Source: an uncultured archaeon (GTDB lineage: Archaea > Altiarchaeota > Altiarchaeia > IMC4 > SCGC-AAA252-I15). From it: a DNA stretch of 48,184 nucleotides. The position numbers and the translations under genes were made by a program. The stretch is from NCBI GenBank assembly GCA_964587725.1, contig CAZPLO010000009.1:1-48184 (forward strand), read 5' to 3'. Every line of letters starts with the position of its first letter. Position 1 is the stretch's first letter. The notes under the pieces were generated by a model. The model was given only the letters and a program-made list of their open reading frames with translations. It had not been told where the DNA came from and searched no databases. Of the stretch, positions 38,286 to 41,735 are shown piece after piece.

Positions 38286-38912
38286 CTAAAAATATAGTCT
38301 CCCCACTTTTTTAACGGCCTCCGCCTTCGCAGGCGGCCCGTGGCCCGGGTAAAAGGTTTCCACGCCTTCCGCGTCAACGAACTCCTCCAGCCTCCTCAAA
38401 GACTCCTCCAAGTCATCCCAGCTGCCCCCCTGGAAATCCGTCCTCCCCACGCCTGTGGCGAACACTGTGTCGCCGGTGAACAGACTCCCTGAACCCCGTT
38501 CATACAGGCATATGCTGCCGGGCGTGTGCCCCGGCGTATGCAGCACCTCCAACGCCACACCCCCCAAGTCTACGACGTCCCCGTCTCTGAGGCGGCGGTC
38601 CACCCGGTGCCTGACGGGCTCGGCACCGAACAATGAGGCGAGCTGCAGGCCGTCAACACCCGTCTCCAACGCCCCGGCGTCGCATTCACCGGCTGAAACC
38701 TCAGGAGAAAACATTTTCAGAATTCCAGGGTTGGCTCCGACGTGGTCGAAGTGGCAGTGAGTATTTATTAAGACGTCAATACCTATATTATCCTCACCAA
38801 CGTGGTTCAGAACCCGCGAGGCATCCAGGCCGGGGTCGATGACGCACGTTCTCTCGCATGAGACGACGTACGCGTTAGACTCCATGGAGGTGCTGAGCAG
38901 GCTGTGAATCAC
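38286..38912 (-). CDS. MBL-fold metallo-hydrolase (glyoxalase II-like)
   Basis: THCHFDH, HTPGHTPGS, FTGD, PGHG. Confidence 0.92.
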   Translation of the reverse strand: MIHSLLSTSMESNAYVVSCERTCVIDPGLDASRVLNHVGEDNIGIDVLINTHCHFDHVGANPGILKMFSPEVSAGECDAGALETGVDGLQLASLFGAEPVRHRVDRRLRDGDVVDLGGVALEVLHTPGHTPGSICLYERGSGSLFTGDTVFATGVGRTDFQGGSWDDLEESLRRLEEFVDAEGVETFYPGHGPPAKAEAVKKVGRLYF

Positions 38913-39038
38913 GGATAAATATATAGGCTAAGTCTATATATGGTATTCACGACCCGTCCCCCGTTTGAGGGGATTTAGTCGGGCTCACAGAAGCCCTTGA
39001 CGAGACTAATGACGGAAAACGGGCTTACCTTACACTAT

Positions 39039-39145
39039 GCCGAGGTGGCGGAGTCCGGTTCAACGCGCGGGCCTTGAAATCATATACTTGACTTGAAAGC
39101 CCGTGTCCCCCCGGGGACACTTGAGTTCAAATCTCAACCTCGGCG
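39039..39145 (+). tRNA. tRNA-Ser(UGA) with a 19-nt intron at 37/38 (39079-39097)
   Basis: Acceptor GCCGAGG/CCTCGGC plus G73, anticodon stem CGGGC/GCCCG, loop CT-TGA-A, long variable arm, T arm TTGAG-TTCAAAT-CTCAA. Confidence 0.9.
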
Positions 39146-39215
39146 AACCTTTTACAAAAAGGTTCATGTGGTCGAGCAGAGCTCGGACAGGTGTCGGACG
39201 CAAAGCGTCCGACAC
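39145..39215. repeat. Palindromic module cluster immediately 3' of tRNA-Ser
   Basis: GAACCTTTT-ACA-AAAAGGTTC, CGAGC-AGA-GCTCG, and GTGTCGGACGC-AAA-GCGTCCGACAC (11-bp arms). Confidence 0.8.
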
Positions 39216-39232
39216 ATCAAAAGAATTTGCAT

Positions 39233-39310
39233 TTGAGTTCAAACGACGGCTTCGCAGAAGCCGGCGCGCCGAAAGCCGAATGGCTTTCGAGCGTCTCAAC
39301 CTCGGCGAAC
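39233..39310 (+). repeat. Duplicated tRNA-Ser 3' end (T arm plus acceptor 3' strand) interrupted by a 50-nt hairpin insert in the T-loop
   Basis: TTGAGTTCAAA (39233-39243) + insert (39244-39293) + TCTCAACCTCGGCGAAC (39294-39310) matches 39121-39148 exactly once the insert is removed. Confidence 0.85.
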
Positions 39311-39318
39311 GACATAAG

Positions 39319-39870
39319 ATGGCGGATAAGAAGGACAAGCAGGATTCCGGGAAGGAGAAACCCAAGGGTAAGGGTAAGAAGAAGCCCGAGTCCAAGGAGA
39401 AGCAGTCAGGCGAAGGCAAGGGCGTCCAGCAGCTGGTCCGTCTCTCGGGTGTGGTAGTCGACGGAAGCCTGACCCTGCCGAAGGCGCTGATGAAGGTTAA
39501 GGGTGTCGGCCCGCGTGTGGCAGACGCGTTGATACCCCAGCTTGGAATCCCCGCGGACGAGCGCGTCGGAAACCTGAGCGAGGAGCAGATAGCCGACGTG
39601 GAGGGTAAGCTGGAGAAAATCCACGAACTCCTGCCCGAGTGGATGCTGAACAGGAGGAAGGACGTTGACACGGGCATGAACCTCCACAAGTTCGGACCCG
39701 AACTGGACATGCAGAAGCGGGAGGACATCAACCGGGAGAAGAAGATAAAATCCTACCGCGGCGTCAGACACAGCCTGAACCTGCCGGTGCGTGGTCAGCG
39801 CACCCGCTCGTCTTTCAGGACCGGCGGCACACTAGGCGTGAGCAGGAAGAAGGTGAAGTCAGGTAAGTAA
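39319..39870 (+). CDS. rps13: 30S ribosomal protein S13 (uS13)
   Basis: KGVGPRVA, PEWMLNRRKD, SYRGVRH..LPVRGQRTRS. ATG at 39319. Confidence 0.96.
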   Translation: MADKKDKQDSGKEKPKGKGKKKPESKEKQSGEGKGVQQLVRLSGVVVDGSLTLPKALMKVKGVGPRVADALIPQLGIPADERVGNLSEEQIADVEGKLEKIHELLPEWMLNRRKDVDTGMNLHKFGPELDMQKREDINREKKIKSYRGVRHSLNLPVRGQRTRSSFRTGGTLGVSRKKVKSGK

Positions 39871-39871
39871 A

Positions 39872-40381
39872 ATGGGCACCCCAGGCAAGCAGCGGAGGAA
39901 GTTCAGCAGGCCCAAGCACCCGTGGAGGATAGAGAGGGTCACGGGGGAGAAGGAAATCCAGTCCAAATACGGCCTCAAAAACAAGCGCGAGATATGGAGG
40001 GCGAGGAGCATGCTGGGGAGGGTGCGCCAGCAGGCGAGGAAACTGCTCCCGTTGACGGACGAGGGCTCGGAGAAGGAGAAGCGTGAATTGATAGCAAAAA
40101 TCAACCGCATGGGCATAAACATCAAGACAGCCGACGACATACTCGGGTTGGGCGTGGAAGACATACTCGACCGGCGCCTGCAGACCGTGGTTTTCAGGCG
40201 CGGCCTGGCAAACACGCCGAGGCAGGCTCGGCAGTTCATAGTACATAACCACGTATACGTGGGAGGCCATAAGGTCAGCGTACCCGGCTACATGGTATTG
40301 GCGCAGGAGGAAGGTACCATCCGGTTGGCTGACGACATAAAGGTGGAGCAAAGTGTCAGAGGACAAGAAGAGTCAATCTGA
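39872..40381 (+). CDS. rps4: 30S ribosomal protein S4 (uS4)
   Basis: [31 protein letters not shown]. Confidence 0.96.
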
Positions 40382-41549: not shown

Positions 41550-41735
41550 GCGGGGGTGCCCGAGTCCGGTCAAACATATCCGTCTCACCCCCCTATTTCA
41601 CTTTCAAGTTGAAAGGAGACGATATGGGCCAAAGGGGCACGGTTGAGGATCGCCGAGCAAGCTCGGATTTTTGCTTGCGGGCAAGCAAATGCCGTGTGGC
41701 GCAGGCCTACGCGAGTTCGAACCTCGCCCCCCGCA
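41550..41735 (+). tRNA. tRNA-Leu(GAG) with two introns: D-loop (41574-41632) and anticodon loop (about 41649-41690)
   Basis: Acceptor GCGGGGG/CCCCCGC plus A73, spliced D-loop GAGTCCGGTCAAAGGG, anticodon stem CACGG/CCGTG with TT-GAG-G, T arm GCGAG-TTCGAAC-CTCGC. Lies at the canonical tRNA-Leu position between rpoD and L18e. Confidence 0.85.

Follow-up and report, generated by a model that had tools for sequence, protein, structure and literature searches.

A duplicated tRNA-Ser 3' end with a double-hairpin cassette in its T-loop, and a family of such cassettes beside archaeal tRNA genes

What is a second copy of the end of a transfer RNA (tRNA), split in its T-loop by two hairpins, doing immediately in front of a ribosomal protein gene? 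The question is raised by a contig of 48,184 nucleotides (nt) from an uncultured archaeon of the Altiarchaeota (CAZPLO010000009.1, here called the window), which is contig C9 of a 1.56-Mb archaeal genome bin of 48 contigs (G000) with a completeness of 92%. Behind the gene for tRNA-Ser(UGA), and before that for ribosomal protein S13, the tRNA's 3' end recurs as a stub that holds a 50-nt double-hairpin cassette. The reading to which we incline, if only by a little, is that of a non-functional scar, in which a spare tRNA-Ser 3' end has been plugged by a non-autonomous, tRNA-loop-seeking double-hairpin element.

The duplicated 3' end and its cassette

The upstream copy belongs to a functional tRNA-Ser(UGA) gene at 39039-39145 on the forward strand, as do the repeats, hairpins and genes of the locus given below. 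Rfam RF00005 recognises one tRNA at 39039-39145 (45.3 bits; gathering score, 29). ARAGORN in its default mode misses it and reports no tRNA in the window; with introns allowed, it calls Ser(tga) and places a 19-nt intron at position 40, a canonical-position intron lying at about 39078-39097. A repeat search delimits the first copy of the repeat to 39118-39148, comprising the end of the variable arm, the T-arm, the 3' strand of the acceptor stem, the discriminator and a trailer AAC. The second copy begins 84 nt 3' of the gene and at about tRNA position 47, and is without the 5' strand of the acceptor stem, the D arm and the anticodon arm. Its 5' part (39230-39243), with the 5' strand of the T-stem and T-loop positions 54-59, is identical to 39118-39131 in 13 of 14 nt, and its 3' part (39294-39310), with T-loop position 60, the 3' strands of T-stem and acceptor stem, the discriminator and the trailer AAC, is identical to 39132-39148 in 17 of 17. 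With one mismatch allowed, the window contains this 17-mer exactly two times, against an expectation of 0.00 from 100 shuffles. Up to the last base of the gene, the repeat takes in 28 nt of the tRNA. The interruption lies between T-loop positions 59 and 60, the sequence reading TTCAAA, cassette, TCTC (a T, then the 3' strand of the T-stem); the initial annotation, which had described a tRNA 3'-end duplication split at 59/60 by a 50-nt double hairpin (39244-39293), was correct in its essentials.

In the Logan contigs of three sequencing runs (X1-X3), positions 38700-39900 are spanned in a single piece each with 0 differences, and in those of a fourth run (X4) in two pieces, whose break at 38868-38873 is outside the feature. 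Misassembly, named in the initial annotation as the finding that could undo the observation, is not borne out, the contigs of all four runs reproducing the duplication without a variant; as the runs belong to one study, which is possibly the source of the window's DNA, they give the assembly weak independent support. No RNA run was listed among those that contain the stretch.

The cassette comprises two adjacent hairpins. The first (39244-39266) has 10-nt arms, at 39244-39253 and 39257-39266, that are 90% complementary, with one A/G mismatch, around a GCA loop; the second (39267-39293) has a conserved base, CGCC..G-A-GCG, with a bulged A at 39290, and is the module by which we define the family. 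In the minimum free energy (MFE) fold, the T-stem of the second copy closes the two hairpins into a three-way junction.

Is the cassette, then, an intron? Position 59/60 is a documented tRNA intron site, the T-arm counterpart of 37/38, and the splicing enzymes of the α4 and α2 types require the strict 3-4-3 form (hBHBh') of the bulge-helix-bulge (BHB) motif, according to the relevant portions of PMC3239211 (Fujishima et al. 2011). The borders of the cassette form no strict BHB: the MFE fold is a T-stem around the two hairpins, an h' helix is lacking, and the central helix could only be TTCA/CGAG with 3 of 4 pairs here, or, with TGAG, 4 of 4 including a G:U pair in most relatives. The relaxed BHB that had been noted at the outset is all that the borders allow, and the intron bases it would need are taken up by a covarying hairpin stem. 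The foot of hairpin 2, which holds these would-be central-helix bases, is equally conserved in copies in D-loops and outside tRNAs, where such pairing is impossible. The sole splicing endonuclease (EndA) gene found in the genome encodes 170 amino acids (aa) with one catalytic domain, and its product looks, by size, like the α4 type. Compared with introns at 59/60 such as that of ARMAN-2 pre-tRNA-Cys, as portrayed in the same portions of PMC3239211, the cassette shares the insertion point, an intron position in a tRNA loop, and permits a relaxed, hBH-like TTCA/xGAG pairing. In contrast to them, it sits in a partial copy without a 5' exon, so that no complete tRNA with both exons is interrupted, as is also the case in the family members inspected; it lacks a strict hBHBh', its central-helix bases are part of a covarying stem, and the EndA of its host has the size of a strict α4 enzyme.

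Members of the cassette family and their tRNAs

The family was sought in 49 genomes of the order with a pattern built on hairpin 2 and its base, the reversed pattern serving as control. The motif occurs at 40 places in 20 of the 49 genomes, the reversed pattern at none. It is present in 12 of 20 genomes of family f1 and in 2 of 22 of f5, the window's own genome being left out of these counts. Two-fold symmetry about a GGCGCGCC centre, with hairpin 2 mirrored in hairpin 1, is seen in most members, and each hairpin has a bulged base three pairs from its foot; the symmetry of the window's own cassette is imperfect. The structure is conserved: the two positions left free in the pattern are paired in all 27 distinct hairpin-2 sequences, covarying between 18 G:C and 9 A:T pairs at one position and 5 G:C and 22 A:T pairs at the other, and the mismatches in the inner stem, G:T (3) and A:C (4), have no strand bias. 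In a wider collection of contigs the matches were mostly chance bacterial ones, and the archaeal rows inspected were 11 loci among the 80 matches listed; among these matches, the motif also stands in tRNA context in metagenome-assembled genomes titled Altiarchaeales, Nanoarchaeota and Pacearchaeota. Viral contigs have the pattern at 40 stretches and no real cassette, 37 stretches being without hairpin complementarity and the 3 that do pair having neither a mirror hairpin nor a tRNA context.

Inspection of 30 contexts in the order reveals the layout of the window as the commonest one: an intact tRNA, 0-90 nt, and a partial copy that lacks the 5' part and carries the cassette at T-loop 59/60 (58/59 in G004). 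This layout was seen with the tRNAs for Ser, Phe, His (3 in tandem), Val (2), Gly, Ala and Arg. In two cases, tRNA-Gly in G012 and one in G027, the partial copy reaches the D-arm and has a second cassette in the D-loop; in G022 (contig C42) a 5' partial copy, likewise with the cassette in its D-loop, precedes its own tRNA. A few members are housed in long 37/38 introns whose tRNAs are intact (tRNA-Arg in G023, tRNA-Trp in G015), and others in the loops of unrelated hairpins. Stubs can be repeated, with three cassette-bearing copies in tandem behind tRNA-His (L052, G004:C67) and two identical 101-nt units behind tRNA-Val (L053, G018:C93), and they can be remote from their tRNA by virtue of cargo: in G007, 530 nt with an open reading frame (ORF) of 154 aa, which has only sub-threshold matches in Pfam, separate tRNA-Arg from the cassette-bearing stub, and in G001 tRNA and stub are 2.9 kb apart, with a Fic/DOC-family gene between them. 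Behind tRNA-Ser(GGA), a partial copy that holds a related insert lies 8 nt downstream in G010 and 24 nt downstream in G022; an oligo-T run comes after this second copy and not after the first, so that a single transcript probably covers tRNA and stub. In some stubs the T-stem or the acceptor strand has degenerated (for example in G027 and at L113), a decay which argues that they are not kept as tRNA parts.

How common are such stubs in a single genome? For that of the window, a simple finder gave 25 tRNA candidates, of which 2-3 are false, and missed tRNA-Phe. Stubs were defined as exact copies of the 13-nt 3' end within 300 nt downstream or of the 12-nt 5' end within 300 nt upstream, with the directions swapped as control. 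Downstream 3'-end copies accompany 10 of the 25 candidates and upstream 5'-end copies 6 of them, with 0 in either control; tRNA-Phe, identified by eye, is the 11th tRNA with a downstream copy. In total, 13 downstream stubs stand at 11 tRNAs, each of the 13 with its T-arm interrupted, and about a third of the recognised tRNA genes of the genome are affected. The window's type of cassette is found in four downstream-stub loci (Ser-UGA, Phe, Arg-UCU and His). The one at tRNA-Phe (contig C10) is the second strict match to the motif; its stub abuts the tRNA directly and begins at about position 38. The remaining stubs hold other small inserts, a recurrent type of which starts with ATAAGCGAG and ends with GAGCGG, and the repeats at the other stubs of the genome measure 14-18 nt. 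Exact 14-mers searched across this genome for stubs distant from their tRNA gave only chance coding matches and one contig-end overlap. An intact tRNA with a cassette in its T-loop is absent from the matches listed for this genome, which comprise the known pairs of tRNA and stub and coding false positives.

Two further observations concern these stubs. A 95-nt element is common to the Cys and Leu stub loci, lying nearly identical in the spacers of tRNA-Cys (C3) and tRNA-Leu (C16); it includes a piece resembling the T-stem of tRNA-Cys, as if flanking sequence had been carried from one tRNA locus to another. The 5' stubs cover positions 1-15/20 and precede six tRNA genes (contigs C1, C2, C4, C16, C27 and C30) by 95-150 nt; most of them have a conserved D-loop hairpin, ACGG-CTNGCT-CCGT, followed by ACACGC.

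The arrangement seen in the window is not a fixed property of its locus. At tRNA-Ser(UGA)/S13 in 14 relatives, the window's cassette is found in none, another second 3'-end copy in five and no second copy in eight, with one locus masked. In G001, a member of the same genus, the second copy carries another type of insert and stands behind an unrelated spacer; in four relatives, a fold-back 'minihelix' copy of the acceptor end is seen; and where the second copy is absent, the leaders are as short as 22-40 nt. The empty sites that the initial annotation had proposed to look for do exist, and an identical arrangement fixed among relatives, which it had named as an argument against mobility, is not borne out. 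The cassettes do not follow the identity of the tRNA either. For 14 of the 16 T-loop cassettes, the nearest relative stands beside a different tRNA end: that of the window has 87% identity with a cassette behind tRNA-His in G004, which belongs to another genus, but only 65% with one behind tRNA-Ser in G022, and between the tRNA-Phe cassette of the same genome and one behind tRNA-Gly in G012 the identity is 93%. Kinship independent of the tRNA, gain and loss at the locus and the decay of stubs together argue for the repeated, independent arrival of a mobile cassette, and against a conservation of the stubs as parts of tRNAs. We infer that the cassette is a mobile DNA element and that the stub is dead and is transcribed together with its tRNA.

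Origin of the plugged stubs

How could such an arrangement come about? In the scenario we favour, cassettes would lodge on the 3' side of tRNA loops, at 59/60 or 58/59 in the T-loop, in the D-loop, or inside long 37/38 introns, and would survive only where they are harmless, in partial copies beside an intact gene or in introns that are removed anyway. The working tRNA would be the upstream copy, and the stub and spacer would most likely be transcribed, unspliced, as part of the leader from tRNA-Ser to S13. Either the insertion itself yields the duplication that rebuilds the tRNA, or the cassette enters a pre-existing, att-like stub; given that 13 of 13 stubs in the genome are plugged, we lean slightly towards the former, coupled course. 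The repair of an invaded tRNA, which the initial annotation had offered as its alternative, may also have played a part. More tentatively, and with clearly less confidence than in the scar as such, one may think of an undescribed class of selfish elements in Altiarchaeales and DPANN, which inserts at an intron-type loop position and duplicates the part it invades, to leave a working tRNA and a plugged stub. If this were true, there would be a source at the DNA level for non-canonical tRNA introns (59/60, D-loop) and for scattered tRNA fragments, with an insertion chemistry not assigned to any known enzyme. The stubs in any case bear on the old question of how archaeal tRNA genes gain introns in odd positions, become split and leave fragments. 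Existing models invoke integrating plasmids or the transposition of introns and have few concrete intermediates; the loci assembled here, sites filled and empty, with and without cargo, with the cassette as intron or as plug, constitute a set of intermediates that can be tested.

Several points weigh against a plugged, mobile-element scar. No transposase, integrase, reverse transcriptase or nuclease able to move the cassette was found in the genome, from which, at 92% completeness, an enzyme gene may be missing. The lack of strand bias in the mismatches makes a structure acting at the DNA level indistinguishable from one acting at the RNA level. The insertion points follow the archaeal intron rule, preceding the 3' strand of an arm by 0-1 nt, and cassette-like two-hairpin modules occur in real 37/38 introns, for example in the initiator tRNA at C1:147764-147892, both of which fit an origin at the RNA level, as introns, just as well. 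No target-site duplication is visible at the T-loop sites inspected, and no model of such a duplication fits, since the duplication also takes in tRNA-specific sequence 5' of the cassette; possible A/T-rich repeats of 8-9 nt surround two copies outside tRNAs (L073, L143), in low-complexity sequence. The single form present in all four DNA runs gives no sign of ongoing mobility, and no pair of the same stub, once empty and once filled, was found, so that the insertion of a cassette into a stub is deduced. As to the initiator tRNA-Met itself (A1:U72; C1:147764-147892), its intron of about 52 nt consists of two A4/T4 hairpins, and ARAGORN miscalls it as tRNA-Thr; the similar two-hairpin layout suggests that the cassette family probably overlaps with real 37/38 introns.

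Which enzymes could be responsible? No integrase, HUH, reverse transcriptase or GIY-YIG gene is near the feature in the window. Profile searches of the genome gave 0 matches to the reverse transcriptase family PF00078 and 0 to the Y1 transposase family PF01797, other transposase families not being searched. PF00589 matches one tyrosine integrase of 411 aa, about 1.2 kb downstream of a tRNA gene (locus L194, C27:12695-15867). Two ORFs of no known identity lie between that tRNA and the integrase, the contig ends soon after, and the locus is probably an integrated element. Of the tyrosine integrases and HUH nucleases for which the initial annotation had proposed to search, neither is at or near the tRNA-Ser locus: the only tyrosine integrase is the one beside another tRNA on C27, and no Y1/HUH transposase was found. 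Casposons, which have a Cas1 casposase together with PolB, insert with a 14-15-bp duplication at a tRNA 3' end, which the repeat sizes of 14-18 nt at other stubs of the genome would fit; an insertion by Cas1 is not supported, as the only Cas1 of the genome (PF01867) is encoded among cas genes beside a CRISPR array.

The cassette invites comparison with MITEs (miniature inverted-repeat transposable elements). Going by the relevant parts of PMC11602168, the highest archaeal density of cMITEs is that of Ca. Altiarchaeum hamiconexum, and the cassette resembles MITEs in being small, non-coding, multi-copy and patchily distributed, in having no enzyme of its own and in the inverted-repeat ends, CGCTC.. 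and ..GAGCG, of most members. Unlike MITEs, it targets a structural position in tRNA loops and not a short sequence, and always goes with a partial duplication of the target gene; no target-site duplication could be defined, and neither a related autonomous element nor a partner transposase was identified. A further likeness is to recombination sites that act as folded hairpins with extrahelical bases, as in the attC sites of integrons, the ends of IS200/IS605 elements and the attP site of CTX phage: the cassette, too, has conserved bulged bases at a fixed distance from its borders, and borders at the feet of hairpins. This is an analogy only, and neither an integron integrase nor a Y1 transposase was found here.

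The alternative that survives best turns the history around. An ancestral tRNA-Ser would have had the cassette as a genuine intron at 59/60, an integrating element or recombining DNA would have supplied a 3' end without the intron, by which the gene is now completed, and the old end, pushed downstream in the manner of an attR, would have been left at its present distance when the element in between was deleted to 84 nt. We regard this as unlikely, if far from absurd. Archaeal integrases as a rule leave partial tRNA copies at the borders of integration, as described in the parts of PMC3293823 and PMC9897764 (van der Gulik et al. 2023) concerned with them, and Sugahara et al. (2012) proposed att sites carrying an intron-like insert (PMC3293823, same parts). 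The parallels to the attachment-site repeats (attL/attR) of SSV1-type and pNOB8-type integrases, taken from these portions of the two papers, are considerable: a tRNA gene, reconstituted and intact, stands beside a directly repeated copy of its end, 3' fragments lie downstream and 5' fragments upstream, and sites are filled or empty among relatives. The displaced end could also appeal to the versions with cargo in G007 (530 nt) and G001 (2.9 kb), to 59/60 as a known intron site (PMC3239211, within the portions already referred to) and to the tyrosine integrase beside a tRNA on C27.

Against these parallels stand several differences. Here no integrase or element gene lies beside the repeats, the spacers of 0-200 nt mostly contain no genes, a hairpin cassette occupies the loop of every stub, the movement of the cassette family is independent of the tRNA, and about a third of the tRNA genes are affected. 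With spacers that are mostly of 0-90 nt and gene-free, the displacement would have to be followed, time and again, by a precise loss of the element, and the cargo in G001 and G007 comes without an integrase. No intact tRNA with the cassette at 59/60 was seen in the contexts inspected or among the matches listed for this genome; nor is there a strict BHB for an EndA that looks α4-type. Kinship among the cassettes disregards tRNA identity (for 14 of 16, the closest relative stands at another tRNA), and the upstream 5'-end stubs share the layout with a plugged loop. The feature fails a defining test of att repeats, of 59/60 introns and of MITEs alike, and in the full-text literature, to the exclusion of subscription-only papers and supplements, we found no description of hairpin cassettes in the loops of partial tRNA copies.

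Less probable still is a functional RNA, be it an alternative 3' exon, a signal for processing by RNase P, tRNase Z or EndA (a minihelix-like site) that separates tRNA-Ser from the S13 mRNA, or a leader that controls translation of the S13 operon. The S13 gene (39319-39870) is the first of an S13-S4-S11-RpoD cluster, recognised by the Pfam domains S13 (E 3.7e-34), S4, S11 and RpoA/Rpb3, and its start at 39319 is 8 nt past the end of the repeat, which places the second copy in the upstream leader region. The stretch from the tRNA to S13 folds far more stably than its shuffles (z = -7.5, RNAfold MFE), and the MFE structure has the 5' strand of the tRNA pairing with the second acceptor strand; the alternative fold suggested in the initial annotation is in this sense predicted, and nothing shows that it matters. 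The conserved, covarying cassette structure and the oligo-T placement in G010 and G022, by which tRNA and stub are probably one transcript, would suit a functional RNA as well. A function is difficult to reconcile, however, with a second copy that is missing from the locus in 8 of 14 relatives, where leaders go down to 22-40 nt, and that has a different type of insert in G001 of the same genus; with a cassette family that stands behind many unrelated tRNAs without a ribosomal operon downstream; and with the decay of stubs. An alternative exon, moreover, would give an identical tRNA, with no gain.

It is more doubtful yet that the locus is a decayed homing-nuclease cassette, in which a GIY-YIG gene once lay between the working tRNA and a disabled copy, and in which hairpin plugs protect the leftover target. 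The sequence of working tRNA, spacer and disabled, plugged copy fits this, and the genome has one small, stand-alone GIY-YIG ORF (PF01541, C1:3956-4171); this ORF, however, does not lie between a tRNA and a stub. Across the order, 31 of 49 genomes have matches to GIY-YIG, at 45 places in all, and none of these places is near any of the 40 cassette places; the two share a contig in G001 and G026 only, at least 264 kb apart, and the cargo ORFs of G007 and G001 are not of the GIY-YIG family. An assembly artefact or a chance repeat, finally, for which a 48-contig metagenome bin with several contigs ending at tRNAs might give cause, can practically be dismissed in view of an exact 17-nt repeat with an expectation of 0.00, of identical contigs from four runs and of an architecture that recurs in many other genomes.

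Spacer, a possible promoter region and neighbouring genes

The 84-nt spacer had been described as three palindromes. Two are clear, namely a trailer palindrome with 9-bp arms at 39145-39165 and a perfect hairpin of 11 bp at 39191-39215, both from the inverted-repeat search; the third, at about 39169-39186, is weak, so that the description was slightly generous. The trailer palindrome, of the type AACCTTT..AAAGGTT and often followed by ATCAAAG, is seen behind many tRNA genes here and in other genera of the family, and may be a terminator or a processing signal. The 11-bp hairpin is of a GGTG..CAC-flanked type, and comparable ones stand beside other tRNAs. The spacer is thus a patchwork of hairpin modules, which are found beside other tRNAs of the lineage as well. 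Of the miniature non-coding element that had been proposed to be integrated at tRNA-Ser, an insertion-type arrangement that is not fixed, with a cassette mobile relative to the tRNA, is retained; the spacer as one integrated element is not.

Stubs also have a practical side. Several contigs of the bin have a tRNA at their start or end, and C1 and C18 overlap, the one with its end and the other with its start, in a stub of tRNA-Arg, so the stubs seem to break the assembly at tRNA genes. They likewise confuse tRNA finders: Rfam gives 21 tRNAs at E <= 0.01 in this 92%-complete genome, 20 of these above the gathering score.

Upstream of tRNA-Ser, an A/T-rich palindrome of 11 bp at 38919-38941 (ATATATAGGCT / AGTCTATATAT) lies between the tRNA and a divergent gene of the metallo-beta-lactamase fold, and may be a bidirectional TATA or promoter region; a scan of 38850-39450 for promoters and terminators found none, with a bacterial consensus that is uninformative for an archaeon. 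Downstream of rpoD, a tRNA-Leu(GAG) gene at 41550-41735 on the forward strand is missed by both Rfam and ARAGORN. It apparently has two interruptions, one in the D-loop by a hairpin of about 55 nt and the other by a canonical intron at 37/38, and if it is the sole copy, the D-loop insert must be excised by the α4-looking EndA. Two of the ribosomal proteins of the cluster are extended: in S13, about 40 additional N-terminal residues, rich in lysine (39319-39438), precede the Pfam domain, which starts at residue 41, and S11 has a similar acidic and lysine-rich extension, with its domain starting at residue 70.

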